64,000 bases of DNA, from contig CM059432.1 of NCBI GenBank assembly GCA_030390025.1, positions 76,634,001 through 76,698,000 on the forward strand, in the 5' to 3' direction. The notes below the pieces were generated by a model that ran no database searches, was not told the DNA's origin, and saw only the letters and a list, made by a program, of their open reading frames with translations. The stretch is from Squalus acanthias (Eukaryota). Positions 681 through 57,460 of this stretch are shown here, in pieces; positions within the stretch are counted from its first letter, which is position 1, and every line of letters begins with the position of its first letter. A program made the translations under genes and the position numbers.

Positions 681-2247
681 AATGGGAACATGAAACCAAC
701 CTGAGATTTTCTTTAGCATCCTTGTCGGAATTGACAGGGCAATCATCATCACAGGTTCTTTAGCTCACCTCTGTCAACAAAGATTTGTGATGTTTCTCTA
801 ATGTAATTCTTCCAAATGTAGAAAAATTGGTTTGTTGGATATAAATTTAAAGATTGTGGGAGAATTTGCTGTCCTGTCACTTCTGAAACCTAGATCTAAT
901 CCAAACTAATAAGGCAAAAGTTCCCCCTTCCTACCACCTGAGGTGTCCTATTTGAAATGAGGCTGAACAGTTTTAGCCTGATTCCTAGTGGGTATGATGC
1001 ACAACACAAAACGTAATTCAGCATGTGATGGCACTAAATCTCACTCAGGGAGATAATAGAAATGAGTGGTGTGAAAAGTGGAAAAATTGACACCAATATA
1101 AGAGTACCTTTTTGGGGTTAGTACTGAAGTGCGGGTAAATGTTCTGGTCCCAGTGCTAATGTGGCAGGATCCTTGCCAACACTGCACCGAGCCAACCTAA
1201 TTAGCCATGCCTGGCAAGCTTCCAGTTTTGATTGGTCCTAAAACTGGATGGGAATTGTGCAAATCATCAAAAGGCTGCAGGCAATATTTAAAGGGATGCT
1301 GCCTCAATAACCATGTGGCTGCCATTTATGACCCATGTACTTTAGAGAATATAACCGTGCAGTGACATTTGGCAGTCATGTCACGCTAATGTTGCTATTC
1401 AGGGAAAAAGTAAATGAAAGTGCTTGCCATGCTGACTGATGCTTGATACATGTATAAACAGCACATTGGCTGTTACTGCAGCTAATCTCTATGCTAGCCT
1501 GGAAGTGTTAGAAATCAGGGGTGTCCAAAATGTATATGGTTATGCGTTTACATGATTGTATTAGAACTGCAGACTAGTATTAGAATGATTAGATAGATGC
1601 TTAGAATCTGCTTGTGTTTTGGTTCTCTGCGGATGTTATAGCATTCTGCAGTGTGATGGTCATATATAATCTTGCTGTGTCTTAACTCCCTGGTCCCTAT
1701 CCTCCCTGGTACAATTGGTACTAGGCTTGGCTTTGTCCCCTTTCAATTATGAGGCCCAAGCCAGAGCTGTCCCACTTCAGTTGGTCATTAACTCACTTTC
1801 ATATAACAAACTGCTCCATCCTGAGATGGATACCTTTACTCCCCTAAATTCCTTTTATTCTATGTCTTTCTATACTAATTAACTTTTAATTATCTTCACA
1901 AGCAGTTTTGTTAAGCTAACTCCAATTCCTACCTTAGCATTATATCATGGTTATTAGCAATAATAGAAGAAACATAGACATTGAGCCATAGTTGGTCCAA
2001 TTAGAGATACATAAACAAAGTTGAAATCCTAACTTGAAAACAGCAGATAGTTAGCTTGGAAACAAGATTATATATGACCATCACACTGCAGAATGCTATA
2101 ACATCCGCAGGGAATCAAAACACAATCAGATTCTAAGCATTTATCTAATTATTCTAATACTAGTCTGAAGAGACCTTTTGTCTCCAGTTCTAATACTTCT
2201 CTTCTTCTTAGGCAGTCCCTCGGAACCGAGGATGACTTGCTTCCACA

Positions 2248-5200
2248 CTAAAAATGAGTTCTCAGGTGACTGATGAGTCCAATGCGGGACCTACAGTCTC
2301 TGTCACAGGTGGGGCAGACGGTGGTTGAAGGGGCGGGTGGATGGGGTGCTTGGATTGACGTGCGCTCCTTCCGCTGTTTGCGCTTGGCTTCCGCTTGCTC
2401 CCGGCAAAGAGACTCGAGGTGTTCAGCACCTTCCCAGATGCTTCTTTTCCACTTTGTGCGGTCCTGGGCCAGGGATTCCCAGGTGTCGGTGGGGATGTTG
2501 CACTTTTTCAAGAAGGCTTTGAGGGTGTCCTTGAAGCGTTTCCTCTGACCACCTGGGGCTCTCTTGCCGTGCTGTTTTGGGAGTCTCGTATCGGGCATGC
2601 GGACGATGTGGCTCATCTATCGGAGCTGATCGAGCGTGGTCAAAGCTTCGATGCTGGGGATGTTGGCCTGAGCGAGAACACTGACTTTGGTGCGCCTATC
2701 CTGCCAATGGATTTGCAGGATCTTGCGGAGGCAGCGTTGGTGGTACCTCTCCAGTGCTTTGAGGTGCCTGCTGTACATGGTCCATGTCTCTGAAGCATAC
2801 AGGAGGGCGGGTATTACTACTGCTCTGTAGACCATGAGCTTAGTGCTGGGTTTGAGGTCCTGGTCTTCAAACACTCTCTTCCTCAGGCGACCAAAAGCTG
2901 CACTGGCACACTGAAGGTGGTGTTGGACTTCGTCATCGACTTCTGCCCTTGTTGACAGTAGGCTCCCAAGGTATGGAAAGTGGTCCATGTTGTCCAAGGC
3001 CTCGTCGTGGATTTTGATAATCGGGGAGCAGTTCTGTGTGGCGGGGGCAGGTTGGTAGAGGACCTTTGTCTGACGGATGTTTAGTGTAAGGCCCATGCTC
3101 TCGTACGCTTCGGTGAAGGTGTTGACGATGGTTTGGAGTTCGGCCTCAGAGTGTGCGCAGACGCAAGCGCCGTCTGCATACTGTAATTCGATGACAGAGG
3201 ATGGGACGACCTTGGATCTGGACTGGAGGTGACGGAGGTTGAACAGTTTCCCGTTTGTTCTGTAGATTAGCTCCACTCGAGCAGGGAGCTTACTGAGGGT
3301 GAGATGGAGCATTGCAGCCAGGAAGATCGAGAAGAGCGTTGGTGCGATGACAGAGCCTTGCTTGACCCCAGTCCGTACGTGAATTGGGTCTGTGGTGGAT
3401 CTGTTGGTCAGGATCACAGCTTGCATGTCGTCGTGAAGCAGACGGAGGGTGGTGACAAACTTTTGAGGGCAGCCGAATTTGAGGAGGACAATCCATAATC
3501 CCTCATGGTTGACGGTCTCGAAGGCCTTTGTGAGGTCAAAGAAGGCCATGTACAGTGGTTGGTGCTGTTCCCTGCATTTGTCTTGTAGTTGACGCGCGGT
3601 GAAGATCATGTCCATTGTGCCCCTTAGTGGGCGGAATCTGCATTGCGACTCTGGGAGGAGCTCTTCAGCTACTGGGAGAAGGCGATTGAGGAGGATTCTT
3701 GCGATGACTTTCCCTGTGGCAGACAGCAGGGAGACTCCTCTGTAATTACCACAATCGGACTTGTCACCTTTCTTGAAGATACTCACGATTACAGCATCTC
3801 TGAGATCCCCTGGCATGCTCTCCTCCTTCCAAATAAGAGAAATTAGTTAATGTATTCGCGACAATAGTGCTTCTCCGCCATGTTTTAGCGCCTCGGTGGG
3901 GATTCCATCTGCTCCTGAGGCCTTGTTGTTCTTCAGTTGTCGGATGGCCTTTTCAACCTCATGCAGGGCTGGGGTTGAGCTGAGGTGGTGGCGGGTAGCA
4001 TGCTGTGGGATGGAGTTGAGGACACTCGCGTCGAAGACAGAGACTCAGTTAAGAAGATCTTCGAATTGCTCCTTCCAGTGGGCACTGACTGCCTCTCTGT
4101 CCTTGATGAGTACCTCTCCGTTCTTGGCCCGCAGTGGGGTAGGACCTTGGGTGCTTGGGCTGTAGGTGGTCTTGACTGCGCTAAAGAATCCACGCACGTC
4201 GTGGTTGTTGGCTAGCTGCTGGATCTCCTGCGCTTTCTCCACCCACCATCTGTTCTTTAGGTCACGAGCTTTTTGTTGGACCTCGGCCTTCAGGCGTCTG
4301 TAGAGCTGCTTTCTTGCTCTTGAGTTCTTGCGCTTGCGGCTTATTAGCTCCTGGATCTCCTGGTCGTTCTCGTCGAACCAGTCTTGGTGTTTCCTGGTCG
4401 AGTGACCGAGCGTCTCTTCACAGGTGCTGATTATGGAGGGCTTGAGTGCAGACCAGGCACTGTGGACACTCTGTGTCTCTGAATCACTGGGAGTCGTCAG
4501 GTTTGTTGTAAGGCGTAGGCTGAATAGGGCTTTCTTAGTAGGGTCTTTCAGTGCTCCAGTGTTGATTTTCCTGCGGCATTGCTTCTGTTGCCACCGCTGT
4601 TTTGGGGCTACGTTGATGACAGAGCGGTGGTCTGTCCAGCAGTCGTCAGCTCCTGTCATGGCACGTGTGATGCGGATGGCCTTGCGGTCCCTCGCTCGGA
4701 CGATGACATAGTCCAGCAGATGCCAGTGCTTGGAGCGAGGGTGTTGCCATAAAGCCTTGTACTTGTCTCTCTGATGGAACAAGGTGTTGGTTATGACAAG
4801 GCCATGTTCTAAGCATTTCGTCAGGAGGAGGGTACTGTTGGAGTTGGCTTTCCCTACCCCCTCTCTGCCAATCACACCTCCCCAGAGGTCTGTGTCCTTT
4901 CCAACTCTGGCATTGAAGTCGCCAAGGAGGATCAGCTTGTTGCCTGTTGGGACTCGGGACAGGGATTGTTCGAGGCTGGAGTAGAATTCCTCTTTGGTCT
5001 CGTTGTGGCTTCCAGTGTTGGGGCGTACGCACTGATGACCGTAGCGCACTGGTTCCGGGCTAGGGTGAGCCATTGAGTCATGAGGCGTTCGTTTATTCCA
5101 CAAGGGGAGTCTCTGAGATGTTCAACTAGCTCATTTTTTATGGCGAAGCCTACCCATGGAGGCGGTGTTCTTCTTCAGGTTTGCCTTTCCAGAAGAAGGT

Positions 5201-5377
5201 ATAACCACCGCCTTGCTCTTTGAGCTGGCCTTCCCCTGCCCGCCGGGTCTCGCTTAGGGCGGCGATGTCTATGTCGAAACATCTGAGCTCCTGGGCAACG
5301 ATAGCAGTACAGCGTTCTGGTCTGTCGCTGTTGGGGTTGTCCATGAGGGTCCTGACGTTCCAGGTCCCAAACTTCAT
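2248..5377 (-). pseudogene. RTE ORF (AP endonuclease + reverse transcriptase + C-terminal Cys/His motif), frameshifted
   Basis: MKFGTWNVRTL...SETR, LILLGDFNARVG, LLDYVIVR, WTDHR (APE); NYRGVSLL, FFDLTKAF, GVKQGS, LQYADG (catalytic YADD changed to YADG); CPTCDRDC...HLRTH; split over several ORFs. Confidence 0.92.
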
Positions 5378-5704
5378 TTTAAAGGGTGGAAGATGCCTGT
5401 GCATGAATTCCTTTAATGTGGGGTGGCCATTGCACACCAGCTACCACACGGGCTTGACAGAGCAAGGTCTTGGTCCAATGGCAAGGGCATCCAAGACGAT
5501 TGGAGACCAGTCTCTGCTACATCGGCCTAGCATACACACATAAACATACTCCTACTGTCTTCCTCCCTCCTTCCCGCAGGTCCTCTCTGCCTGGGTTTTA
5601 TAGGCTGCAGTGTGGTGCTCCCGACCCCGCTGCTGTTCCACCCTGCGCCACTCCTGTGCCTCAACCTCGCTGCTGGGCTCACTCACTGGAAGGAGACACA
5701 CTAT

Positions 5705-5930
5705 AAGGAGGTCGGGACCCAGGAGCGAGGTCGAGGCCCAGGAGCGAGGTCGAGGCCCATGGGCGAGGACGGGGCCCAGGAGCGAGGTCGAGGCCCAGGA
5801 GTGAGGTCGGGACCCAGGAGCGAGGACGGGGCCCAGGAGCGAGGACGGGACCCAGGAGCGAGGTCGAGGCCCAGGAGCGAGGTCGGGACCCAAGAGCGAG
5901 GACGAGGCCCAGGAGCGAGGACGAGCCCAG
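5705..5930 (-). repeat. ~19-bp GC-rich tandem repeat forming the RTE 5' end
   Basis: about 11-12 units of CCAGGAGCGAGG(T/A)CG(AGGC/GGAC) on the + strand, ending exactly at the TSD. Confidence 0.9.
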
Positions 5931-7029
5931 CAGTTCTAATACAATCATGTTAACACAGCATTATTCGCGTCATAATTTTATTCGCATAACCATATACATT
6001 TTGGACACACCTGATTTCTAACAGAAGGTGTCAGAGGCAGAAAATCTGACGGAGGAGTTGACATCGACTGTCACAGGGCTATCATCCCAAGGTGCAGGTG
6101 AGCTGCAGATGACCGTGTAGCAGATGGCATGGCTCTGAATCTGGCTCCTTGCTGACCTGGGGCAGATGTAGCCAGCTCTCCTTGATCATTGTAAAAGGGA
6201 GGTGCGTTGGACCCTGCAGAGATGCTTGGTGACATAGTGGTAGGTACATTCAGTCGGGCTCTAGCACCTGCTGATCTCTCTGCCATGTCTTTTTTCATCG
6301 TTTGCCATTTCTGTCCTTGCCAGCGATCCCCACAGCCCGTGAATGAATTTTAAAAACCCTGCACATTAAGAAATGTCCAGTGACACTAAGCACAGGAGGA
6401 GGTGCCTGAATGCAGGTCGCATCGGTACTGAACACGGCGCTGGGAAGGTCTAGAGCAGAATAGCGACCAGCTGTCAGTAAAATCCTTTTCAGAAGGGAAT
6501 TGCAAGCACCAAGGGCCAGAAGTGTGCCAACTCAAACTGATCATATTCATATACAGGTGTAGCCAGGTATATGCAATGTATGCAAATGTTTACACATTTA
6601 TCTCCTAGGACGAAAAATCAGCTGCTAAAAGTTGAGTTTGCAGTGCAACAGATGATATGCTGCCCCAAGGGATCTGGCTGGGAAATCACTGTGTTCCATT
6701 AACTGATGTTCTTTTTATTACCTGCCCTAGCTGCAGCTTGTACTTGACACTACTGCTTCATTCCAGGACCAGACACAGTGCTGCAAGTGGGAATTCCTGA
6801 TCTTGCAATAAATCAGGAATTCAAGAGGGAAAGGAGTGCCAAAGTGATCTACAGGGGTTGGGTTGGAAGTAGAGAGTGTCTTTTGGAACTGTTGTGAGGG
6901 TGTTAGAGGGAGAAAGTAGCTCTGCGACCTGGGGGATTAGAAGGGCAAGAGTCTCTGCTTCTGTGGGCTGCCTTTTGGAAGGGGACAGTGCCTCCGTGAA
7001 AGGGGGAAGTTTAATTCATAGGATTCATT

Positions 7030-7907
7030 GGGGGAAAAATTCAGTATCGCCCCGTTTGGGGCGCAATTATCGGCCGGGCGAAAAGATTAGCGCCTGCCGC
7101 TAATTATTGCCTCCGACTACAAACTTGACTTTTATTGCCCCTGGAGGTGATTGGAGCGCTAAATCAGGCGCTACACATCTGTCTTAAGGCGCAAAGGCCG
7201 AGGAGCGAGGCGCTACCTCAGAGCGCTGGCGAAGCTCATGTGCTGTCAGTCAGCAATGGAACACAGACACAATGGCGCCGGCCAGTTCTTAAAGGGGAGG
7301 GTTGATCTTGCTTTCCATCCACATCCTGCTCATTGCAGCCCTGAATCTCAGGCCTGGAGAGACCTGTACATCAAATCTGCTGGAAAGAACAATGGAGAGA
7401 TCCAGGGAAAGAGTTCAGAGTGCAACCCCCACAGTCAAGGAAGGGTAAATCAAAATGAACCTGCAAAGTGCTGCTCAGTACCCAAAACTCCTTCACACAG
7501 TGTTGAATCTCTCCAGAAGTCACTCTCTCTCTCTCTCAGAATGAGTGGTGCAAAAATGTCACCAACGAAAAAAGGCAGAAAGTGGTCGCCTTTAAATAGC
7601 GCTCCCCCAGTCCCTTCCTGACTGCAAAACGCTCCCCACAACCTGTCGTTGCTACCGGCAGGCGGAAAGGCAGGGGGCGCCACTCAATATCCGCTACGGG
7701 GCGCTACCGGGGCGTTGCACACTCGACTGACGTCATGATCCTCCGGCGCAGGAGATCGTGGTGGTAGTGTTTAGCGCCGCCGCAAAATGTCTCGTTAATT
7801 TTGCGAGCGGCGCAAACATCGCCGCGCCCGGGCGCTAGTTTCTTTGCGCCCCATTAGCACCCACTTAAGGCGCTAACGGGAGGCGCAACCAACTGAATAT
7901 TTCCCCC
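7030..7907 (+). mobile_element. non-autonomous PIF/Harbinger element (copy 1)
   Basis: TIRs GGGGGAAAAATTCAG / CTGAATATTTCCCCC; highly similar inverted copy at 52757-53647 with TTT TSD. Confidence 0.85.
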
Positions 7908-8755
7908 ATAGAGTCATAGAGTTATACAGCACAGAAAGAGGCCCTTCGGCCCATCGTGTCTGCGCCGGCCATCAAGCCCTATCTGTTCTAATCCCATTTT
8001 CCAGCACTTGGTCCATAGCCTTGTATGCTATGGCGTTTCATGTGCTCATCTAAATGCTTCTTGAATGTTGTGAGGGTTCCTGCCTCTACCACCCTTTCAG
8101 GCAGTGAGTTCCAGATTCCAACCACCCTTTGGGTGAAAAAGTTTTTCCTCAAATCCCCTCTAAACCTCCTGCCCCTTACCTTGAAACTATGCCCCCTGGT
8201 TATTGACCCCTCTACTAAGGGGAAAAGTTCCTTTCTATCTACCCTATCTATGCCCCTCATAATTTTGTACACCTCAATCAGGTCCCCCCTCAGCCTTCTA
8301 TGCTCTAAGGAAAACAACCCCAGCCTGTCCAGTCTCTCTTCATAGCTGAAGCGCTCCAGCCCAGGTAACATCCTGGTGAATCTCCTCTGCACCCTCTCCA
8401 ATGCAATCACATCCTTCCTATAGTGTGGCGACCAGAACTGCACACAGTATTCCAGCTGTGGCCTAACTAGCGTTTTGTACAGCTCCATCATAACCTCCCT
8501 GCTCTTATATTCTATGCCTCGGCTAATGAAGGCAAGTATCCCATATGCCTTCTTAACCACCTTATCTACCTGTCCTGCTGCCTTCAGGGATCTATGTACA
8601 TGCACACCAAGGTCCCTCTGATCCTCTGTCCTTCCTAGGGTCCTACCATTCATTGTGTATTCCCTTGCCTTGTTAGTCCTCCCAAAATGCATCACCTCAC
8701 ACTTTTCAGGGTTAAATTCCATTTGCCACTGTTCTGCCCATCTGACCAACCCGAC
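7908..8755 (-). mobile_element. CR1 LINE 3' fragment (subfamily with CTCTATGA tail)
   Basis: ORF 7988-8821: WQMEFNPEKCEVMHFG...RDLGV...[15 protein letters not shown]...RGDLIEVYKI...FFTQRVV. Confidence 0.92.
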
Positions 8756-10951: not shown

Positions 10952-11040
10952 TCATCGACCTGAAACGTTAACTCTGTTTCTCTCTCCACAGATGCTGCCA
11001 GACCTGCTGAGTATTGCCAGCATTTTCTGTTTTTATTTAT
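10952..11040 (+). mobile_element. solo fragment of Penelope-like terminal repeat
   Basis: TCATCGACCTGAAACGTTAACTCTGTTTCTCTCTCCACAGATGCTGCC...; matches the 3' end of the Penelope-like element at 24770-24850. Confidence 0.8.
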
Positions 11041-11399: not shown

Positions 11400-14109
11400 C
11401 TAAAATACGGCCACTAATGGAGCCAGGGGAACTTGAACAGTGGAAGCGAGGAGATTTGGGAGAGAAAGGGCAAAGGATGGCTGCAGATTCCCATAGATAG
11501 AGGTGAAACAGGTTAGTTGCTGCTTTATTTCTTCTTGCTGTTGCTACAATTCTACACGCTTTTGGTGCTTTCCATAGTTGTTTCAAGTTTCAAAGGTATA
11601 CAGGGAGTAATGTGGCAGGTGCTGAAGTACTTTTTCCTGACTTCAAGGCTTCCTGACATGGGTGCACTAGTAGGGCTTCCTCTTGGAAGCGAGCACGACT
11701 GGGAGAATGAGCAGAGACCATGCAGAGCAGGACAAGCTGCTAGAAGAGAGAGGAGGAGGATGGGGAGAATGGCTCTCAGCAGGAGGCCATATCCGCCCAG
11801 GATGTTGAGGGAGCAATTCTCCTACCTGAACTTCAGCGACAACCAATGGTTGAGATGTCTGCGCTTCACTAAGGAGCTCTTCACTGAAATCTGACAACTG
11901 CTGCAGCCACAACTCCAAACTCAGAGCAGGGCAAGGACCACATTGCCATTGGCTGTGAAGGTGACCGTGGCTATGAACAATCATGTGCCTGGCTCCTTCC
12001 AGGCTGGTGCGGAGATATTTACAACATCTCGCAGTTTTCAGTGCACTGTTGCATAAGGGAGGTCACTGATGCTCTCTATTCAAAGAGAGATAACTTAATT
12101 TCATTCCCTCTTGCCAGAGAGAAGCAGGCGGAGCGAGCACAAAGGTTTGCAAGGATTGCAGGCTTCCCCATGGTGCAGGGTGCCATTGACTGCAGGCATA
12201 TTGCTTTGCGTGCACCTCATGTCTACTCTGCCATGTACTGGAACCAAAAGGGATTCCACTCCCTCAACATGCAGCTGGTGTGTGACCATAGGCAGTGCAT
12301 CATGCAGGTCAATGTCCGATATCTTGGCAGCAGTCATGATTCCTTCATTCTGCAACAGTCCTCTGTTCCACCTGTATTTGAACCACCTTGGCAAGTCAAA
12401 GGCTGGCTAATAGGTGGCAAGAGTTATCCACTCATGACATGGCTCACATCATCCGGTCCAGAACCCACACACACATGCACAGCAGGCATACAATGAGGGC
12501 CATGCTGCCACAAGGAACATTATAGAGCACACCGTCAGACAGACATCTCCAAGTTTGCAGTCCACCATTGTATCAAGGAGGTCACCAAGGCTCTCTATGC
12601 CAGGAAGAATACCTATATCTCTTTCCCAATACAGGGAGAGCACTTCGCTCACATTGCAGACTTTCCCAGGGTGCAAGGTGCCATAGACTGCACCCACGTG
12701 GCCTTGCATCACCATCCTAGCATCGTTCTGAATAGGAAGGGATTCCACTCTCTCACTGTCTATCTTGTTTGCAACCACAGGCAATGCATCATGCAGGTCT
12801 GCGTCTGGTTTCCCAGCAGCAGTCATGACTCATTCATCCTGCGTCAGTCCTCTATGCCGCCTTTATTCCAAGCAGGCCATCAGGTTACAAACTGGATATT
12901 GAGCGACAAGGGCTATTCTCTTCAGACTTAGCTCATGACTCCTGTTAGTAACTGGGGCATAGCTGCAGAGGTGGCCTACAACGAGAGCCATCCTGCCACC
13001 AGGAATGCAATTGAGCAGACTGTCTGGTGTTCAAGCAACGCTTCCGCTGCCTGGACCACTTGCCAGTAGCTTTTCAGTACAGTCCTGACTATGTATCCAG
13101 ATTTGTGGTCTTCTGCTGCATGCTGCATAACTTTGTCATCATGAGGGACCAGTCCTTGCACCCATCTGGGCAACAGGAAGGGCAGCAGGAGGAGCAGGAG
13201 CGTACAGAGGATAAAGAACAGGAGCAGCATTGACTACCAGTGCCCCTTTCTGCCAGAGCTCTCAGAGAGCAGCTCATCAAAAATCGCTTCAAGCGAATCA
13301 TCCCTCCCATCCCCAATACACCAAAAGTTCCACAATCCTTATCATCACCATCCTTACTACCACCATCCGATTGCCTTCCTTCATCCAGACTTATGGATCT
13401 TGCCCTCACTTCTCTACAAATAACCAATACTAAATCCAGAATGAAAAACAAATTTATCAAACAACTCACCAGTGGCTTTGTATCCCCCTGTCCTCGTTCC
13501 TGCGCACATGTGCCCGGTGATTTGCTACATGAAGGATCATCCTCTAGCCTAGCCTCTAAAGTAGGTGTGGTTCCAGTTTCTGAGCTAGTGCGTGATAGAG
13601 TAAGATCAAGTGATGCTGCATCTTCACAAAGGCTGGTCTCCTCTTCCTAAGGTGGCAGTGGTATCTCCACATTTTCAGCACCTGAAATGAAAGAGGGACT
13701 AGAATTAGGTTTTATTGTGAAGAGAGAGCAAAGAAAGATGAGTGGCTGGTGAATGCAGCTGCAGTGTATCATGCAGAGTGTGTAGAGTGAGACAGAGGTA
13801 ATAAAGGAAAAATAGGATAACGTGTGGAGAAACCCTGTATGATGTCTCCCCCAGCATCGCCACTCGCCACAGCCATGACTCTCCCCCAAGCCCGTGTTGG
13901 CCAGCAGGTGCTGGGTGACTTTAAGTGGCGTCAGAGAAGCTCAATTTCCTGCATCCCAAAACAAGTAGTGCCGGCTGCACGACTACATCATTTTAGTGAG
14001 GTCCCAGCACAAATTTCATGTGGTCCCAATTGACCATGTGAAGAGGTGCATGCAGAGTGTGCTCCACCCCCTGCACACCCGTTTTTGAGCACAATTACAT
14101 TTCTAGGCC
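11400..14109 (+). mobile_element. degenerate PIF/Harbinger element A (left end uncertain)
   Basis: HARBI1-like transposase remnants on +; Myb-gene exon remnants on - at ~13480-13880; right end TTTCTAGGCC resembles the right end of element B. Confidence 0.8.
11658..13295 (+). pseudogene. Harbinger (HARBI1-like) DDE transposase, disrupted, catalytic core present twice
   Basis: GFPMVQGAIDCRH...NQKGFHSLNMQLVCDH...GSSHDSFIL, then again VQGAIDCTH...NRKGFHSL...SSHDSFILRQS...LSDKGY; ends FKQRFRCLD...CCMLHNF. Confidence 0.88.
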
Positions 14110-24185: not shown

Positions 24186-24753
24186 AACAATTTAGTATAC
24201 TGTTTTCGTTGCTCTCGATGCAGTCTCCTCTATAATGAGGAGACCAAGCGCAGATTGGATGACCACTTTGTGGAACACCTCCGTTCAGTCCGTAAGCGTG
24301 ACCCCGAGCTTCCGGTCACTTGTCACTTTAAATCTCCACTCCACTCTCACTCCGATCTCTCTGTCCTTGCCCTGTTACACTGTTCCAACGAAGCTCAATG
24401 TAACCTTGAGGAACAGCACCTCATCTTTCAATTAGGCACTTTACAGCCATCTGGACTCAACATCGAGTTAAACAATTTCAGACTATAACCTTGGCCCCTA
24501 TGTTTTCTTTTTTCTCTCACATGGCAGCTGTTGATGATTCTGCCATTGTCATTTACACCTCATCTAGAGCCATCTTTTGTTTCTTTACTTGTCCCATTAC
24601 CATTTCCTTTTGCCTTGCACCATCATCCCTTTTGCCTTTTAATCTCTCCTGCCTTCCATCCTATCACAGACCTTCCCTTTGTTCTTTCCGCCCCTCCTCC
24701 CTTTCCCTGCCCCACACTTGCTTAAAAATCTTGTTACATCTCTAACTTTTTAC

Positions 24754-24790
24754 AGTTCTGATGATGGGCCATCGACCTGAAACATTAACT
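24754..24790 (+). ncRNA. minimal hammerhead-ribozyme-like motif (mutated) in the Penelope 3' repeat
   Basis: AGTT-CTGATGA-T-GGGCC-ATC-GACCT-GAAAC-ATT-AACT: stem I AGTT/AACT, CUGAUGA and GAAA cores, imperfect stems II and III. Confidence 0.6.
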
Positions 24791-24889
24791 CTGTTTCTCT
24801 CTCCACGATGCTGCCTGACCTGCTGAGTATTTCCAGCATTTTCTGTTGTTGTTTCAGATTTCCAGCATCTGCAGTATTTTGCTATTGTT

Positions 24890-25215: not shown

Positions 25216-25646
25216 AGAGTTATGAGGGAGTCTTCAGACACTGGGAGGTACCAGGATTGGAAACAGGATAATGTGGTGCCCATATTTAAAAAGAGTGACA
25301 AAACAGACACAGGCAACTACAGATCCATTCTATTCCATGAAAAATAGTGGAAACAATTATCAGGAGTAAATTCCAGGATCAATTTGTACAATAACCTAGT
25401 TAACAACAGTCCACATGGATTCAGAAGGAGCAGATTCTGCCTGATCACCTCCTCAAATCCTCAACTCCTTCAAGGAAGTGACAACCAAGTGGACTGTGGC
25501 AAGCCCTATGATGTGGTGTACCTTGACTTCCTAAAGGCATTTGGCAAAGTTCGAATTAAAAAGGCTATTACTCAAACTCAAAGCTGTAGGGCTTCAGGAT
25601 AAACCTTTTGAATGGTTAAGAAACTGGTTGAAGGGTAGGAAACAAT
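25216..25646 (+). mobile_element. old CR1 fragment, left part (continues at 29766)
   Basis: NVVPIFKK, SPHGFRRSRFCL, YDVVYLDFLKAFGKV. Confidence 0.75.
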
Positions 25647-26147
25647 GGCTGCAAAATTCGGGGGTTTAACTTCGGCCTTTAAGGCCAGTTTTGATGAAAC
25701 AATGGCAGCCGACTCGCCATCACCCGCTTCCGGCGGGTCCCGCGGCGGACGCCATTTTGGGGAGGTCGGTAGCGCTGCCGTTGCCAGCGCTCACTCCAGG
25801 TTTTTAGATTCGGCATATTGTGACGTCAATGAGTGTGCAACGCTGATTTGATGCACGATCTGCCATTTTGGACGTCGCCGTTCCATTTAACGCCCTCTCT
25901 TAATCACGACCAGCTGAGCAAGCGTTCAGCAGCAGGATGGAGCCCCCAGCAGCGCTAATTAAAGGGATCATCAACAACTTGCAGCTGACTTGATTTTTCA
26001 GTTCTACTGGCTCTGTGTAAGTTTGTGCAACTGTTTGGAGCTTTCTAAAGTGTTTAAAGTTGCTAACGTCACAGGGAATGTTACTGCAAGTGGAGAACGA
26101 CTTGCTTCTCATTTAAAGGCTTCTGCTCACACCACTTGCTCCCAGTC

Positions 26148-27059
26148 ATGGGGGCTCTACTTGCAGTCCCTCTCGCATTCAAGTATGATATGGAGGTGGA
26201 GCGGAGACAGCGAAGAAGAGGACAAGATGCTCGCAGAGGGAGGAGGAGGAGGGGCAAGAAGGCTCTCAGCAGGAGACCTTACCCACCTAGGGTCTTCTGA
26301 GAGCACTTCTTCTACATGCACTTAAGCCAGGAGTAGTGTATTAAGAGGCTCCACTTCACCAAGGAGGTGGTCACAGAAATCTGCCACCTCCTGCAACCAA
26401 ACTTGCAGCTTCAGAGCAGGGCGACCACGGCTCTCCCGGTGGCCCTCAAGGTCACCGTGGCCCTCAATTTTTTCACCCTCGGATCCTTCCAGTCTGCAGC
26501 AGGCGACATAGCTAATATCTCTCAGTTTGCCTTGCATCGCTGCATCATGATCATGAATGCCTGCTATCCTGGCAGCAGTCAGGCTGCCTTCATCCTGCGC
26601 CCATCTAGTGTGCCAGCAATCTTCCAGCCACCACGTCAAACTCGAGGGTGGCTGCTCGGCGACAAAGGTTATCCATTCTGCACCTGGCTGATGACTCCCC
26701 TCTGCAACCCCACCACCCGTGGCCAGCAGTTATATAATGACAGCCATGCTGCCACAAGGAACGTCATCAAACAGACCATCGGGGCGCTCAAGCAACAGCT
26801 TTGCTGCCTTGACCACTCTGGAGGAGCCGTCCAGTACTCGCCAGAGCAGGTGTCCCATTTCGTGGTGGTCTGCTGCATGCTCCACAACTTGGCCATCGTG
26901 AGGGCGCAGCCCTTGCCACCAGGGTTTCCAGGACCATTTCAACAGGAGGATGAGGAGGAAGAGGAAGAGGAAGAGGAGGAGGAAGGGAGGAGGCAGGTAG
27001 CAAATCCCCATTCCAGATGGGCTGTCCGTGAGCACCTCATCAGACTCCAATTCCAATGA
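26148..27059 (+). pseudogene. Harbinger transposase, internally deleted
   Basis: [46 protein letters not shown], acidic tail; the GAIDCTH segment is missing near 26547. Confidence 0.88.
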
Positions 27060-27522
27060 ATGGTACCTCAGATCCCCGTTGCTCACCACTTCCCCATCTT
27101 ACCTCTGTCACGGAACGTCCTCCTGGGCACAAAACTGAAATAAGAGCGACCACAAAACACACATTCCAAACAAAATTCATAAATTTATCAAATTCAAATC
27201 AAAAGAACAAAGTCAACTAATCACCCTTGTGAATTCCCTTAGTGTCTGTCTTTCGTGTGCCTTTTACTACTCTAGTGCTCCTATGAAGTTCTTCCCCAGT
27301 GGCTGCAGCATGGCTGGTGGAAGGCTGCTGACTCTCAGTGGGGGAGACGACAGATGGTCTTGCAGGACGACCTCGAGTAGCTCTGGACCTAGAAGGCCCG
27401 GCTATAGACTGTACCACTTCGGCATGGGCGGCAGCAGTCTGGGCTGGGTAGCTGACAGGCAGCAGCAAGGGCACTGGCAGAGTGGCAGCAGTGGGAATAG
27501 GAATGCTGTCATCCTGAGAGAG

Positions 27523-27739
27523 CCATGATGTGGAGATGTCGGTGTTGGACTGGGGTGGACAAATGTGAGAAGTCGCACAACACCAGGTTATAGTCCAACA
27601 GTTTTATTTGAAATCACAAGCTTTCGGAGCGCTGCTCCTTCATCAGACTTCACCTGCCGAAGGAGCAGCGCTCCGAAAGCTTGTGATTTCAAATAAAACT
27701 GTTGGACTATAACCTGTTGTTGTGCGACTTCTCACATTT
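27523..27739. mobile_element. inverted pair of Penelope-type terminal repeats with hammerhead-like cores
   Basis: 12-bp TSD ATCCTGAGAGAG at 27511-27522 and 27740-27751; arms 27561-27641 and 27659-27739 (1 mismatch in 81 bp); CTGATGA-A-GGAGC-AGC-GCTCC-GAAAGCTT on the - strand. Confidence 0.8.
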
Positions 27740-27863
27740 ATCCTGAGAGAGGACAGCAGGTTATTGTTCCATGGAGCCACTGCTACACCCCCGGGGCGGC
27801 GTTTCAGCAATCCTAGTAATCTGTTGGAGGACAGATTGTTGGCCTGCTGTGAAACCCTACAAG

Positions 27864-28008
27864 CAATGTTCCCCCTAATGTTTTTTTAGGTGCACGGCCC
27901 CTTTAAGGGGCTGTGTGGTCCATCCACAGTTTTGCGAAATTTAACATTGGAAAAGCCTCACGGGACTGGCAGACAGCTGCGCAGCCATGCGGCTTAGAGG
28001 GAACATTG
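27864..28008. mobile_element. 145-bp hAT-type MITE
   Basis: TIR CAATGTTCCCCCTAA / TTAGAGGGAACATTG (14/15); 8-bp TSD CCTACAAG / CCTGCAAG. Confidence 0.88.
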
Positions 28009-29765
28009 CCTGCAAGCCGCTTTCGACACTCACACACCCAGCGATGATGGCAGCAGTCTGAGCTTCCACTGCAGCAGTGAGATGTTGGGTTGCTTCCGCC
28101 TGTGCTGCAGTGGAAGCTGTGACATTGCCCATCACACCCAGCAGCATATTTAGGTTCACAAGGTCTCTCATGGAGTTGCCCATTTTTTCCATCCTGGAAA
28201 TCATGAGCTCCAAGCTCTGCACAAAACCCCGTACAATGTTGGAGCCGCACTCCTCCATGCTCCTCGACACTGACAAGAGTCTTTCTGGCAGGCTTGCCAT
28301 TGCATCCAGCATTTTCGTGTGCATGCCCATCACCCTTCTTCTGAAGGCCACCCCATCGAGGTCATCATCTGAGTCCTGTGGAGCAGAACTCATGTGCAAA
28401 CTCGCCATCCAGGGAGCTGGCACCCGAGCTACCCTTTTCTCCGGCCTGGCTGCAGCCCACTCATGCCAGGTGACTCATCACGTGCAGATCCCACCTCTAA
28501 AGTTCGCGCAGTGCCATTTTTTGAGCTGGTGTCTGCGAATGTCAGATGCAGTGCCAGTGTGTCTTCTTCTTCTCCTCCATCAGTGTCTTCCTCATGTTCA
28601 AGGACAGGCTGGCCAGGTTGCAATTGTTCCGTATCTGAAAGCAGAAAGGCACAAAAGTTGGGTTGTGGTGAGGGGAGGGGGGGAAAGCAAGATATCCATG
28701 CATGCATAATCAGCAGCTTGTAAGTGAGAAGAGATTGTGGGATGAGGGGGAAGTGGGATGTGAGAAGAAGGATTAGATATGAACATACCGTCATCATCAG
28801 CAATGCTTTCCACTTCTCCACTTGCCACGGACTCAGTCACAGCCCCTCCAATTTTTGCAACACTGATTCCTTCAGGTTGGTTAGGTTCTCAACCCTCGCT
28901 TGGCCGCCTCCTGTCTGCTGCTGCTCCCGGCGGTTATGAGCCACCTTTGCATGCAAGAGAAAGGGAAGTGTATCAGTGAGTGTAGTGCAATGTGTTTGGG
29001 TAATGTGCCTGCCATGGTTGAATAGTGTGTGCAAGGTGCGAGATGTGAGTGTGAGTGTTGCAGCAGTGGTAAGTATGTGAGGGTGAAGTGAAGCTATGCT
29101 TGTGAGGTATGAGTGGTGATAGCTAGAGATTGCGGGTAGGTGAGTAATGGGGGTGTGGTGCATTGCGCAGTGTGTGAGGCTTGTGGTGCAGATGGTGGGA
29201 TAAGGCATTTGCTGAAGCCTTCGCTCACCTTGACAAGCTGTGTGAGGTCATTAAACTTTTTGCGGCACTGGATCTAGGTCCTGGGGACAACATTCGTCGC
29301 AGTGACGGATTGTGCTATCTCCTCCCAGATCCTTCTGCTGTTTACCTTTAAAGGCCTCTTACCCCCATGTGGGTATAATACATCCTGTCAACATTGGACC
29401 CCCAGGACCAAGGCCTCCAGTATGACATCTGAGAAATGTTTTGCCCTTTCTTTAGGGTGTTGCACCATGGCTTCTTTTCACCTGACAATGAGGTGCTTCT
29501 GCAACAAAGCACTTCCCCTTTAAATAGTGGAGAGCCTAGGCCAAACATTATTGGTCAGTAGACTGCACCTGATATTGCGCCCCCCCCCTTTGAGCGCTAA
29601 GCCAATCAGCTGCGCATTTAGCGCTGAGATCAACGATGCAATCATGTAAATGAGCAGGCAGCACGAATTTTATGTGCTGCCTGGACCACTTTCAACGGGC
29701 GCAGGCAAATAGCGCTGGGCGGTGCCCTCGCCTGTTTTCAGGCCTTACCCCATTTCTAGACCAAT

Positions 29766-30480
29766 AAGTACTCATTAGAGGAGTTATGTCAGTGTGAGGC
29801 AGGTATACTGATTGGGTGTTTTAGGGCTGATTGCTAGGACTACTGTTTCTAATTTACATAAATGACCTGGATTCAGAAATTCAACACAAAGCAGTCAAAT
29901 TTCCAGATGGTAGTAAACTAGGAGGGACAGTGGAATCAGAGAAGGTAGCTCAGAAACTTTAGAATGAGTTGGACAAGATATGTAAGTGAGCAGAACAATG
30001 GCAAATAACATTTAATACAGACGAATGTAAAGTGCTGCACATTGGAAGAAAACAATAGACGACTCACGTAATCCATGAATGGCTTTGAAAAAGCTAAAGG
30101 ATGAAGCTGAAAGAGATCTAGGAGTCGTAGTAGTCTTGACGCTGAAATTGTCCAACCAATTCAAAGCAGCAATCAACAAAGCCAATAGGATGTTGAACTA
30201 CATAGCCAAAACAGTAGAAGATAAATCATAGGAGGGAATGGTGTAACTTTATAATTCTGTCGTCAGATTGCATTTTGAATACCATGTCTAGTTTTGGTCA
30301 CCAAGGAACAAAAGAAAGATTCAAGTGCTGCGGCGAGGAGCCATGAGATTGATCCTCCATCTCAGAAGTCTGAGTTATGAGGAAAGTTTGGGGAAACTTA
30401 GACTTTCAGCCTGGAAAGGAAGCAACTGAAAGGCGATCTTATAGAGTATGTAAGAAAAAGTTAACCTGGAATGTTACTGT
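29766..30480 (+). mobile_element. old CR1 fragment, right part
   Basis: degenerate AAATTTCCAGATGG (KFAD-like), TGGCAAATAACATTTAAT (WQ..FN), AGAGATCTAGGAGTC (RDLGV), TTTTGGTCACCA (FWSP). Confidence 0.7.
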
Positions 30481-33806: not shown

Positions 33807-35040
33807 ATGGGTGCCGCTTATGCTGTCTCACCTTGGACCTCAGAATCGGACCCAGCACCAACAGCACCAGCCACACCAGCAGCAGCAGCCACAACACCAG
33901 CAGGAGCAGCAACCACAACAACAGCCTTCTCCTCAACGACCTGATGCTGCAGAGAAGAGAGGGGGTCAGCACAGGGCTGCACCGCGCAGGAGGCAATACC
34001 CCAACACAGGGTATACAGGCAGAGGATGAGCTTCCTGGACATGACTGAGCAGCAGTGCTTCAGGAGGCTCAGGCTATCGCGTCAGGTCGTCACAGACAGT
34101 TGTAGTTTGCTGGAACAAGACCTGCTGCCCAGAGGTCCTATTGGACATGCCTTACCAGTGGCTGCCAAAGTCACCACTGCCCTCAACTCCTTCGTCTCAG
34201 GCTCCTTCCAGGGATCTGCTGCAGACATTTGCAGGATCTCGCAGTCGGCCGCCCACAGATGCATCACCCAGGTGACAATGCCATGTTTGACAAGTCAGCC
34301 AATTATGTCAACTTTACCACTGATGAAGCCAATGTTACTGAGCGGGTGCTCGGCTTTGCAGTTCTGGCTGGCTTCCCACAGGTGCAGGGCATCATCAACT
34401 GCACACATGTGGCCATCAAGGCACCCCCACATCACCCAGGAGTGTTTGTGAACCACAAGGGCTTCCACTCCCTCAATGTGCAGCTCATCTGCAACCATAA
34501 AAAGATCATCATGCATGTGTGCGCCAGATTCCCTGGCAGCTGTCATGACTCTTTTGTGCTGTGCCAGTCCACCCTCCCTCAGCTCTTCGCACCTCCAAAC
34601 AGACTGGCTGCTTGGAGACAAGGGCTATCCACTGAAGACGTGGCTCATGACACCCTTGAGGAGGTCAAGTACTGAGGCCCAGAAGCATTATAATGACAGC
34701 CACATGTCCACCAGATGTGTCATAGATCAAGCAATAGGCATGCTGAAGATGCGCTTCAGATGCCTTGACAGATCTGGAGGAGCCCTTCAGTATGCACCAG
34801 CCAGGGGCTCCGGAATCATCGTCCTTTGCTGGTCACTGCACAACATAGCGCAGCAGCAAAAATTGAAGCTGCAGGAGGAGCAAGGCTCTGAGCGCACATC
34901 CTCTTCAGAGGAGGAGGAACAGGTGGAAGACGAGGAGGAGGAGGACAATGAATCTGATGTGTAGTTGGCACCAGCAAGCGGTGCACATTGCTGCCCAGGA
35001 GGCCTGGGATGGCCTCATAATGGCCAAATTTACTTAACTT
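33807..35040 (+). pseudogene. Harbinger (HARBI1-like) transposase, frameshifted, Gln-rich N-terminus
   Basis: [86 protein letters not shown]. Confidence 0.9.
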
Positions 35041-35291
35041 ACTCTAATGCACCTATATGGCTGCCACATTCTGTACTAAGCTCCCCCCTGCCCAACAACA
35101 TCATAAAGCAGCCCTACAATGAACAAGCCATTCCTGTCACCCAAACCCCCAGTGCTCAAGGTTAAGTAATGTCTCACCATTCACTCCAAGTGACAAAGCC
35201 ACTTCCCAGGTAGCAGGCAAAAGTGGACAACACCAGAAAGTGGTGCAAAGAAATACATTTATCTGTGTCATCAAAATAACTCCTTGTGCAT

Positions 35292-46473: not shown

Positions 46474-49234
46474 TATATAGTTTCTTAAAGATTGTAAGAA
46501 ATAAGCAATCCCAAACTTTCAATTTCTATCCTTATATCATCATAAACCCCAATGTGTTGTTATTTCTTGAAACAATTATCTTTCGTTATTTCATTTAAAA
46601 ACTCTGATCACTTGTTCTCATTAAAAACTCCCATCTGTCATACTTTATTACAAACTTCAATCTGTCCTTATCACATTACAATCTCCTCCCCCCCCTTCAA
46701 TCTGTCATTAGTTCATTAAAAAGCAGTCTCTGTAGTTGCTTTTAATACCCTGATCTTACATCGATGCAAGTGCAGACTCCTCAGTCTCTGTGATGTTAAT
46801 GATTTAGGTTGCTACATCTATATGTACAGCAAAAGCTCTGTGTTTATCAAGATCTTTGTTCAGCGGAAGCTTTCCAGGTTTATTATTGTAATGAAGTTGT
46901 GCCTTGAATGTTCAAATTTATTTGGATTTTTTAATTGGACTAAATGTTTCCTTGGATAACAAAGTATCATTAGAAATATTTTAACTGGAAGAATGATCTT
47001 ACTTGATTACTTCATACTGCTGCTTTAAAGTCAAGAATATTCGGCATTCATAAATTGTTTAAATGATTAGAGCAGGTGATGTTGCCGTAGTTTCCAAAAG
47101 ATAAAGAATACAAGTTGATTTAATCAGGTACATGCCCACTCCTCCCGAGAAAAAAGTGGCCCATTTTATTCAGAACTCTCTATTCACTGACAATTCCATC
47201 CTGAAAATGACCCGTTTCTAATTATTAGTAAACAGCGGGTTACTTTTGATATCTGTGAGTTATAACTAGCATGCTGCAATGCGCTATTTTACTCAGTGGG
47301 GATCATGGGAGTTTAAATGCGTTAAAATAGAACACAACGGAAGAACCAATGGGAGCACACCTGCAGTAATCCTGCTGAGCCCCTTGTTGGGCTGCTAATG
47401 ATGCACTTAATGAACTGAAATTTTAAAACAACTTTGTAAATGCTGCTGTGCAGCACACATGCTTCTGATACTTTTTATTCTGATTGGCTTAGCTGAGGGT
47501 GCAGGAAACCTAATGCAGTCAGAAGGCCTTGCATTCACTCAGCCCCTTAAAAACAACACTTCTACTTTATTCCAATAAAATATTCTAACCCTCTGTTAAA
47601 ATCATTCTTTGCAGGAGCACTCTTTGCTGTCTGTTTGATGAGGATTATCATCAGCTCCAATATACTTATTCACCAACTGTTGGACAGGGATAGTATTTTT
47701 TTTAAACTGAGGAGCAAATAATCTCACATGCTTCAAGAGTCATTTTAAGTTAGTGGTGCAAGTTTTTACATAGCATTGCAGAGAATATATAATTCAGTTG
47801 TACTTCAGAGATTAGGGCTGACTTCAATGCTTGGGGCATCGATTTTCTGATTGGCATTAACATAATGCCAATTGGAAAATCTAGACTTGGGTGTTATATT
47901 CATGATATTTTAAAAATGCTCATTATTATGCATTGTAAGTAATAAAAAAAAGTAGCTATCATGCAAGTATTACTGTATCTGAATGGAGCATCTGCAAAAG
48001 AAATAATCACAGTTTGATTATTTCTCCACAATCTTGTGCAGTCATGTAGACATGAAAGAGAATAATATTGAAATAAATGTCGCTGCTTGCAAACTGAGAC
48101 TGTAATTGCAGACCATTGTTCTGCATGGCCTTTCACTGATCTATGTCTCAGTATTACTTCAAACATATTACAAGAAGAATAGCATGAAGTCAAGAATATT
48201 CTCATTTAAAACCTAAAACTTACTAGCCCTGAAATGAAGCCAAGTGATATTACTGGGCAAACATGGAACATTTCTTCTCTGCTATTTTAGTGCAGGTGTT
48301 AATCTATTTATTTTAAATGGGTTAACTCCTCTGCTGTAATAGTGGAGGGGGGAATTTCAGATGAAGACATTAACTTTCATATGCTGCTACCCCGTGGGAA
48401 AAGGACACAGCCCAATTTTTTGAACACATATTTCATAAAGCACAATTATATCATTGAAAATCAATGTAGCATTCCATAGGTCATGTAAAATTTGTCAGCG
48501 CAGCACATAGCCAGTTTACACACTGCAATGCTGAGCAATTGTTTACAGTTATAGTTGTTGGTGCAAGATTAGTTACACGAGCAACACCCAATTTCTGTGC
48601 TCACTTCAGAAAGTAATTTTGACACATCACAACTTTTAAGCACATCTGGTACTCAGCTATCCACACAATAATAACAGCAGATTGAATGTTAGTGGTTTAA
48701 TGCATTTTCATAGTCCTGTTAGTAACATGCTGTGCCTGTGTACATAATCATTGACAGCACAATGTTAATCTGGTTAATGGATCTGTATGGTACCACTCTT
48801 TAGTTCTGCTTTTTCATGTGAAGATATTCAGTATCACAGAAACATAATTCTGTCATGATAGTAATGTTAACATATGCTCTAGACACCGGCATGGTGTTTG
48901 TGACGTGACGAGCAATTTCTTATCAGGACAGCCTGGGTATTTTCCCAATCACCCTGGTGCTCGGTTTCCCCACAAGCCCACATGCTCTTTTTGTTTGTTT
49001 GAGTTCACTGTCCCCACCTTCCCATTCCTTCTGCTGCACTAGCCCAGCTGTTCTGTGGGAAGTGCAAAGCTGAAGAATTTAGTGTGAGATCCCCTTGATT
49101 AACAAGCACAATTGCCACTATCCATCGACTCACCATGTTACTGTAGACATCAGGGAGGAATTTGGGGCCATGCGTATTACATTTGCAAACTGCAGCCTAG
49201 TGCACACTCTAGGCTTTCATCCACTTAAACAGTA

Positions 49235-52250: not shown

Positions 52251-52756
52251 GCAATTTGTCATTAATTGATACTAAATTGGTAGTCTTATTCTGAGATGTG
52301 AAAATAATGGATGTTGTGAGAAATGAATTTTCACACTGATGCAATAGGGAACGCTCTTCCAAGGTTTGGTTAAGGCACCTTGCTGGGGCAGTGTAGCAGA
52401 AAATGTACCCTGCATTTATCCTAAATAGCAAGCCGACATGGGAGGCTGTGCTCTTTCCCATTATCTGGTCAAAAATAAGTAGCTTAGTACAGATTTTAAC
52501 ACTGAAAGGTTTTTTATTGATGTAGTAACATTTAATTAGTTCATTCATTTAGTTTATTCATTTATAGGTTTAAGCTTTCTAAAAGCAATGCAATATATTC
52601 CTTGTTTTTTAAAGTATGCATGCTATACTTTACAAGTGAATATGTGCCAAAAGTGAGAAATTGTTCTACCGCAAGCATCGACAGCCCTCGCCGTGAACAA
52701 CAAAAAAATGTTAAGTTTTGAAGTGGACCCTTTGTATAAGGGCTGCAAGGGAGTTT

Positions 52757-53647
52757 GGGGGAAAAATTCAGTTGGATTGCACCTCCCGTTAGCGCCTTAA
52801 GAAGGCGCTAATGGGGCACAAAGCAACTAGCGCCCGTGCGCGGCGATGTTTGCGGCGCTCACGAAATTAACTAGACATTTTGCGGCGGCGCTAAACACTA
52901 CCGCCACGATTTCCTGCGCTGGCCGATCGTGATGTCAGTCGAGAGTGCAACACCCCGGTAGCGCCCCGGACCGATTATTGAGTGGCGCCCCCTGTCTTAC
53001 CGCCTGCTGCTAGCAACAACAGGTTGAGGGGAGCATTTTGCAGTCAGGAAGGGACTGGGGGAGCGCTATTTAAAGGCGACCGCTTCCTGCCTTTTTTGTC
53101 GGCGAAATTTTTGCACCACACATTCTGAGTGAGAGAGAGAGACTGCAGGAGATATTCAAAGCTGTGTTGAGGTGTTTTGGGTACTGAGCAGCACTTTGCA
53201 GGTTCTTTCTGGTTTGATCTTCCTTGCATCGATTTAGAAGAGAATATGGGGGCTGCAGTCTGAGCTCTTTCCCTGGGCCTCTCCATTGTTCTTTCCAGCA
53301 GATTTGATGTACAGGTCTCTCCAGGCCGAGATTCAAGGCTGCAATGAGCAGGATGTAGATGGAAAGCAAGATCAACCCTCCCCTTTAAGAACTGGCCGGC
53401 GCCATTGTGTCTGTGTTCCATTGCTGACTGACATCACATGAGCTTCGCCAGTGCACTGAGGTAGCGCCTCACTCCTCGGCCTTTGCGCCTTAAGACAGGT
53501 GTGTAGTGCCTGATTTAGCACTCCAATCACCTCCAGGGGCGATAAAAGTCAAGTTTGCAGTCGGAGGCGATAATTAGCGCCAGGCGCTAATCTTTGCGCA
53601 TGGCCGATAATGGCACCCCAAACAGGGCGATTTTGAATTTTTCCCCC
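52757..53647 (-). mobile_element. non-autonomous PIF/Harbinger element (copy 2)
   Basis: TIR GGGGGAAAAATTCA / TGAATTTTTCCCCC; TTT TSD; inverted relative to 7030-7907. Confidence 0.9.
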
Positions 53648-57295: not shown

Positions 57296-57460
57296 AAATA
57301 AAAACAGAAAATGCTGGAAACACTCAGCAGGTCAGGCAGCATCTGTAGAGAGAGAAACAGCGTTAACGTTTCAGGTCGATGACCTTTCATCAGAGTTGGA
57401 AGATGTTAGAGTTGACAGCTTTTAAGCATGTACAGAGCCAGGGAAAAGGGGGGCAGGGAA
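57296..57460 (-). mobile_element. solo Penelope terminal repeat with intact hammerhead core
   Basis: - strand: CTGATGA-A-AGGTC-ATC-GACCT-GAAAC-GTT (57393-57362); homologous to 24700-24850. Confidence 0.8.

Follow-up and report, generated by a model that had tools for sequence, protein, structure and literature searches.

Insertions of Penelope-like elements (PLEs) are described as consisting of an inverted, 5'-truncated copy together with a 30–40-bp tail that is often found at one end only (PMC8557442, in part), and a tail of the same length is also reported in the relevant section of PMC11167929. Inverted pLTRs and short extensions serve as curation marks for these elements (PMC8969392, in part). 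In rotifer PLEs, inverted pLTRs occur together with a 31-bp tail and target site duplications (TSDs) of 8–10 bp, an arrangement that the corresponding section of PMC3846280 interprets as self-priming.

PLEs of metazoans also carry a minimal hammerhead ribozyme (min-HHR), which was defined in PMC4209133. According to the part of that work drawn on here, pairs of motifs occur on opposite strands about 100–700 bp apart, and single motifs do not cleave. The protein of a PLE from Anolis carolinensis, the Poseidon element PAc, cuts and extends both target strands without a difference between them, and copies uncleaved RNA, on which synthesis starts at two internal sites, one at either boundary of the tail (PMC11167929, in part). 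Related to PLEs are the metazoan non-LTR retrozymes, which are repeats of two or more head-to-tail units, each with a complete type I hammerhead, that give rise to circular RNA (parts of PMC7229834 and bioRxiv 10.64898/2026.07.22.740005).

The window analyzed here is a stretch of 64,000 nucleotides from Squalus acanthias. It contains a 217-bp insert (27523–27739) in which two ends of an abundant repeat meet head to head, one of them extended by 38 nt. With high confidence, we identify it as a PLE of a high-copy family that inserted recently, is dead and is heavily truncated at its 5' side, so that it comprises only two pLTR 3' ends placed head to head, one of them tailed, in an older Harbinger-type transposon. 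The structure is thus of an already known kind, a truncated PLE insertion with an inverted pLTR and a tail, and is ordinary for PLEs.

The Pen2 and Pen2a insertions of Adineta vaga (sections of PMC3846280, with the scheme in the legend to Fig. 2 of PMC8557442) resemble the locus in having a head-to-head inverted, 5'-truncated pLTR and a 30–40-bp tail at one end, as well as a TSD of about 8–12 bp and an insertion point inside another transposon. However, Pen2a has a 15-bp overlap at its junction, whereas there is none here, and the present locus keeps only two stumps, with no ORF and no direct pLTR. The retrozymes are likewise short, non-coding and PLE-related with a type I hammerhead, but the locus differs from their head-to-tail organization in being head-to-head, with one damaged motif per strand.

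Anatomy of the insert

The features of the insert are as follows:

27511–27522, plus strand: TSD, left copy (repeat comparison; single copy at the empty site in contigs)
27523–27560, minus strand: AC-rich "tail" of 38 nt, on one arm only, its sense strand ending in ATGG (sequence comparison; family boundary in X16 contigs)
27561–27646, minus strand: left arm, a pLTR end 5'-truncated exactly at hammerhead core C3 (sequence comparison)
27614–27646, minus strand: minimal type I hammerhead motif with an intact core (CUGAUGA/GAAA) and a stem I that lacks its 5' strand (motif reading)
27647–27739, plus strand: right arm, a tail-less pLTR end 5'-truncated 7 nt upstream of C3, with the loop at 27647–27653 (sequence comparison; loose contig ends)
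27650–27686, plus strand: minimal type I hammerhead motif with stems I and II, a self-complementary AGCU replacing stem III, and C instead of A6 in the core (27657); cleavage is predicted after 27682 (motif reading; contig depth)
27740–27751, plus strand: TSD, right copy (repeat comparison)

Self-comparison reproduced the near-perfect 81-bp palindrome reported in an earlier note on this DNA, including the coordinates of its arms (27561–27641 and 27659–27739, 81 nt each) and the single base at which they differ (27583/27717). The 17-nt spacer described there was right in part: 17 nt (27642–27658) do separate the 81-nt arms, but pairing continues inwards, so that 27561–27646 pairs with 27654–27739 over 86 bp with three mismatched pairs, and the real loop, GTGAAGT on the minus strand, is 7 nt long and is made of family sequence. 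The suggestion that the palindrome is a strong hairpin or cruciform former agrees with its folding z-scores (−22 as DNA and −23.5 as RNA, with 0 of 200 shuffles equally stable in either case). The predicted fold of a transcript is one hairpin of more than 80 bp in which both hammerhead motifs are buried in pairing.

The left arm carries 38 outer nucleotides (27523–27560) that are absent from the right arm; the two repeat stumps are 124 and 93 nt long. The tail and the arm could form a 9-bp helix, but with a z-score of only −0.8 this does not count as evidence. The reading frame in the tail is just 30 codons long, and the frame opened by the ATG inside the hammerhead core meets a stop after 9 codons. 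At its end (27523–27527, minus strand), the tail reads ATCATGG. The ATG of the tail thus has a good Kozak context and shares its frame with the hammerhead-core ATG, though behind a stop; it is the tail ATG that may be the start of the autonomous ORF.

An identical 12-mer at 27511–27522 and 27740–27751 flanks the insert and occurs only these 2 times in the whole window. A lone copy of it is present at the empty site in public sequencing contigs, where 63 contigs of one run (X6) pass from 27522 directly into what lies beyond the second copy of the TSD; an empty-site joint from 27488 to 27740 is also seen in 3 contigs of another run (X1) and in 5 of X6. The perfect 12-bp TSD and the youth of the insertion, both proposed in the earlier note, are thereby upheld: the insert is real, young and well preserved.

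The anatomy matches the published PLE pattern, which supports the assignment to a Penelope-type hammerhead repeat: there is an inverted, 5'-truncated pLTR in head-to-head orientation, a 38-nt tail at one end, a TSD, a minimal hammerhead that is conserved in the family, and variable 5' truncation, as seen from the scattered ends among the junction pairs listed. BLASTN of the element against the window found no second copy of the family. An ORF with the telomerase-like RT and GIY-YIG endonuclease to which a PLE pLTR is linked was recognized in none of the 35 of 68 window ORF translations scanned for domains, which counts against the assignment. Matches to sigma-70 promoters in both arms were rejected as irrelevant to a eukaryotic sequence.

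The hammerhead motifs

The two motifs point outward from the center of the palindrome and are built from a TCAC/GTGA stem I, a CTGANGA and GAAA core, an extra A, a 5-bp stem II and an AGCT tetramer. Both strands read as first written in the earlier note: on the minus strand the core is intact but stem I has lost its 5' side, and on the plus strand stem I (TCAC/GTGA) is intact but the core has an A-to-C change. With the metazoan min-HHRs of PMC4209133, as presented in the part of that work used here, the motifs share the CUGANGA and GAAA core, the extra nucleotide before stem II, the 4-bp stem I, the self-complementary tetramer in place of stem III, a high copy number and the occurrence of opposite-strand pairs. 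However, stem II has 5 bp here versus 7–8 bp in the Schistosoma min-HHR families, and both copies at the locus are damaged. One of the two supplement files of the same work holds no shark entry, and a search of titles and abstract openings in the literature outside subscription papers and Repbase returned nothing relevant on PLE hammerheads in sharks.

A search of the entire window against Rfam at E ≤ 1 gave no hammerhead and a single chance match to a microRNA. The motifs are nevertheless considered probable hammerheads, based on the motif itself, on covariation with a second family in the window and on the literature. The motifs of this second family are found at 24754–24790 (plus) and 57361–57397 (minus). 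That the window holds two ribozyme families unrelated in sequence, as the earlier note had put it, proved correct. There is no primary-sequence similarity beyond the core, and the local alignment scores between the families were reached by 218 of 500 and 152 of 500 shuffles. In the shared fold, 7 of 9 pairs were changed on both sides between the two families and none in slid controls, a weak test with four sequences and a preset structure.

Neither motif at the locus should be able to cleave, judging from sequence and predicted folding, because each is damaged, the two lie on opposite strands and the transcript would be a single long hairpin. In addition, the head-to-head placement of the copies on opposite strands makes the same-strand dimer needed by minimal hammerheads (PMC4209133, in part) impossible. 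The predicted cleavage site, after 27682, lies 28–35 nt downstream of both arm ends.

Other repeats in the window

The window is a repeat-rich eukaryotic stretch in which a domain scan found several LINE remnants. One of these, at 1506–6023 on the minus strand, has an RVT_1 match at 2617–3846 and an upstream ORF at 4045–5121, and has the inverted pairs 1567–1674/2063–2170 (94%) and 1506–1546/5983–6023 (98%) around it. The second hammerhead family is a repeat with three copies, at 24696–24855 (plus), 57295–57452 (minus) and 10952–11038 (plus), the last of which starts inside stem II. Three shorter, imperfect palindromes that are unrelated to the palindrome family are located at 43309–43364 (57 nt), 43570–43601 (32 nt) and 47841–47881 (41 nt). 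Two 896-nt repeats, 7030–7908 and 52756–53647, run in opposite directions and share 89% of their sequence; the overlapping ORFs tested gave no Pfam match. The end of the window, 62001–64000, is G-rich (GC content 0.68, GC skew 0.54) and is probably a tandem repeat.

The repeat family in public sequencing contigs

Logan contigs from 4 of 20 listed runs were aligned to positions 27250–28000 (751 nt) at 85% likeness. X1 and X5 are two samples of organism A, X6 is from organism B, and X16 is from organism A and was guessed to be RNA. The aligned contigs numbered 23,014 in X1, 17,240 in X5, 17,981 in X6 and 2,609 in X16, counting the element and its Harbinger flanks together, and the summed contig depth peaked over the left arm. 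The element and Harbinger are each abundant as repeats, although depth does not give a copy number. The runs contained at most 52% of the sequence words and probably come from individuals other than the one assembled. None of the 32 pieces listed spans the junction of the locus itself. Pattern scans gave 0 matches twice in viral contigs and 0 in one scan of metagenomes; 4 matches of 19–23 nt in another metagenome scan had no wider similarity and were taken as chance.

The family has retained its ribozyme core. Position 27657 is A in 98.7–99.99% of the summed contig depth in all four runs, and the C at the locus is thus private to it, the family core being intact. Position 27642 is mixed (28–74% G of depth), so the family core is CTGAYGA; the consensus, compared with CUGANGA/GAAA, keeps the core in the form CUGAYGA. 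Loose contig ends before 27647 (23 contigs in X1, 39 in X6 and 6 in X16) agree on a common upstream sequence, which shows that the loop was templated and that the ribozyme is not where the family starts. Family boundaries were found at both limits of the tail. At 27524/27525, the family ends in X16 with unrelated, A/T-rich flanks (9 and 11 contigs, agreement 0.46–0.47). Copies therefore share the end of the tail as an insertion boundary, and the family lacks strict site specificity.

Head-to-head junctions other than that of the locus account for 15 of the 21 coordinate pairs among the matches listed, corresponding to 14 events; the joint 27631→27670 in X1 mirrors 27630→27669 in X5, a single junction seen on both strands and in two samples. 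The 21 pairs come from the first 15 rows of one list (245 more) and the first 12 of another (204 more), and the junctions represent other centers only, as copies with the same center as the locus would not show as joints. Relative to C3, the listed antisense ends range from +15 to +89 and the sense ends from −7 to +31. Antisense ends fall within 10 nt of C3 in 0 of the 15 listed pairs, and 0 of the 15 have a junction at the predicted cleavage site. In 4 of the 15, the sense end lies between −7 and 0, although two of these four are at the edge of the aligned reference and may extend further. The clustering of junctions at 27647 is partly an effect of this edge, and that at 27669–27672 partly reflects divergence of stem II between subfamilies.

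The flanks of the insert differ from the read majority at many positions, which make up 35 of the 40 rows listed. In the arms there are five such differences, of which two are seen mainly in organism B; the greater divergence of the flanks indicates that the insert is younger than its Harbinger host copy. At 27564/27736 both arms carry T, whereas about 69% of the depth in X1 is A.

The Harbinger host and a possible target-site preference

The insert interrupts a transposon for which the following features were recognized:

26337–27059, plus strand: Harbinger-type transposase remnant of the host element (PF13359 DDE_Tnp_4, E = 1.1e-16)
27220–27522, minus strand: C-terminal portion of a second, convergent ORF of the host element, split by the insertion (frame open across the modelled empty site, 104 aa)
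27504–27510, plus strand: left half of the target inverted repeat, TGCTGTC, flush with the TSD (sequence symmetry)
27752–27758, plus strand: right half of the target inverted repeat, GACAGCA, flush with the TSD (sequence symmetry)

The interrupted second ORF is 35% identical over 71 aa (E = 4e-4) to 35298–35510, in a copy that has both Myb/SANT and DDE_Tnp_4 matches, domains that we take to mark PIF/Harbinger. At least three diverged Harbinger-type elements are present in the window (11648–13159, 25700–29750 and 33945–37452); they have DDE_Tnp_4 matches and are 66–72% alike in the transposase region, and the last has its Myb/SANT match at 36886–37452.

The empty site has the form TGCTGTC-12 nt-GACAGCA, and both inferred nicks fall directly 5' of a GACAGCA, one on each strand. 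At least seven symmetric pairs around a 12-nt spacer occur at 12 of 63,940 positions in the window, and at 100 positions if spacers of 7–15 nt are allowed. As a DNA hairpin, the empty site has a folding energy of −7.6 kcal/mol. The second Harbinger copy of the window is too diverged to show the site.

Among the matches listed, all 8 of 8 rows that join flank to element (5 coordinate pairs) do so at 27521/27522. They lead into the tail-less end (27563–27566), with differing letters in between, and come only from X1 and X5, the two samples of organism A. Since the locus has the tailed end at this position and the listed joints the tail-less end, there were at least two independent insertions at the same Harbinger position. 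A preference of the PLE family for this symmetric site, recognized within a Harbinger gene, is a tentative possibility. The symmetry was noticed after the fact, and the shorter sides of the joints, 23–24 letters at 85% likeness, are less reliable. The listed joints are part of a longer list (hundreds more rows), which may hold other Harbinger positions. Moreover, an amplified Harbinger copy that already carried the insertion would make several of the joint rows one event, and the high depths suggest as much. The same literature search, by title and abstract opening outside subscription papers and Repbase, found no report on PLE targets in Harbinger, on PLE target specificity or on cruciform targeting.

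How the insert may have formed

Given its identity, the likeliest route to the insert, and one that we favor by inclination more than conviction, is that both strands of a 12-nt staggered cut primed reverse transcription at two PLE start sites and that the resulting cDNAs were joined. The endonuclease of the element would make one nick in each target strand, 12 nt from each other, so that 3' overhangs remain. The top strand would then prime at the outer start site, at the end of the tail (27523). The bottom strand would prime at the inner site (27739), at which the target GGAT could pair with a GUCC in the template through 3 Watson–Crick pairs and a wobble, a pairing derived from a 3/4 match between 27557–27560 and 27740–27743. 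Both cDNAs would be copied from uncleaved RNA, stop at 0 and −7 relative to C3, and be joined without microhomology and filled in. Both arms keep the part of the core that lies upstream of the predicted cleavage site, which argues that the template was uncleaved and that cleavage did not create the junction. The hammerhead would thus be a passenger of the pLTR that did not make the junction.

PAc provides a parallel in several respects (PMC11167929, in part). Its two start sites for reverse transcription bound an AC-rich tail downstream of the hammerhead, as they would here, and in vitro both strands are extended with uncleaved RNA as template, as proposed for the locus. However, PAc has a preference for ATT, and stem II is where its ORF begins, whereas at the locus both inferred nicks precede GACAGCA and not an ATT motif, which counts against the reading favored here, and the core ATG is soon followed by a stop. 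A search by title and abstract opening found nothing relevant on twin priming in PLEs.

A less probable but still appreciable alternative is that the same PLE arrived by another route, in which one cDNA folded back through the 7-nt loop (GTGAAGT on the minus strand) and self-primed the second arm, the tail being lost at one end during resolution by the endonuclease, or in which self-priming took place on an antisense template, as has been proposed for rotifer PLEs. The orientation of the loop fits the minus strand as first strand, and the near identity of the arms and the T that they share at 27564/27736 fit a single template. The 27631→27670/27630→27669 junction of the family turns exactly at stem-loop II, like a 5-bp self-primed hairpin, and self-priming is how the corresponding section of PMC3846280 interprets such structures. 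However, annealing of two cDNA ends would explain the stem II junction equally well, and at the locus itself the priming stem would consist merely of two G–T wobbles. The copy also reaches 38 nt past the start of the arm that it would have copied: if the tail-less arm simply folded back, target DNA would be copied and not the tail, and fold-back of the tailed arm would give a loop in the opposite orientation to that seen. Fold-back of the bottom-strand cDNA followed by trimming of the end is also compatible with the loop orientation. Finally, core position 7, at which the family frequently has either letter, is not the same in the two arms, a difference that a CpG transition would also explain. 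The final sequence cannot separate the two routes, priming from both strands being the one that we consider somewhat better placed.

The earlier note had instead proposed a minimal, retrozyme-like unit with a 5' junction tied to the ribozyme. In this form, a self-standing, non-autonomous palindromic unit would have its 5' boundary set by the ribozyme and be amplified as such. C3 is the exact end point of the left arm, the right arm extends 3 nt beyond stem I, a transcript would include the tail region needed for trans-mobilization, and the four listed pairs with sense ends between −7 and 0 point the same way. However, two of those four sit at the reference edge, and the listed pairs include no antisense end near C3 and no end at the cleavage site. 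The other listed copies invert at scattered positions relative to the hammerhead core, and the family continues upstream. The tandem arrays that such a unit might form were looked for, and 25500–30000 contains none except an AGG microsatellite, whereas retrozymes are head-to-tail repeats (parts of PMC7229834 and bioRxiv 10.64898/2026.07.22.740005). With both motifs buried in a transcript hairpin of more than 80 bp as well, a self-standing unit is improbable.

It is more improbable still that the structure is an assembly artefact caused by a read that folded back, or that one pLTR stump was rearranged later: no listed contig crosses the junction and the C at 27657 is nearly missing from the aligned runs, but these runs are probably from other individuals, a perfect 12-bp TSD encloses the whole structure with its three mismatched pairs and one-sided tail, and many similar junctions are found in two samples. 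A MITE-like DNA transposon with the arms as terminal inverted repeats would likewise be short, non-coding and flanked by a TSD, but can practically be dismissed, as the 38 extra terminal nucleotides on one arm place the start of the left arm 38 nt inside the left TSD, so that the termini are not inverted repeats, and as the centers vary among copies of a family that runs on upstream and has a conserved hammerhead core.

The best overall explanation, held with considerable confidence, is thus a truncated PLE insertion that probably formed by priming from both target strands and carried its hammerhead along as a passenger.

Significance

The value of the locus is that it represents a minimal footprint of the PLE integration reaction, in which one arm is tailed, the junction is blunt and the TSD is clean. 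This footprint fits the activity on two strands and from two start sites that has been demonstrated in vitro for the Anolis enzyme (PMC11167929, in part). Its interest, however, lies mostly in the possible target-site hotspot. If the preference is genuine, it would suggest a dimeric GIY-YIG enzyme that recognizes the palindrome or an extruded hairpin and primes from both strands, with either start site on either strand. Should the Harbinger site prove to be a true hotspot, it would provide a defined natural substrate for the study of target choice, cutting and inverted-end formation by the PLE endonuclease.
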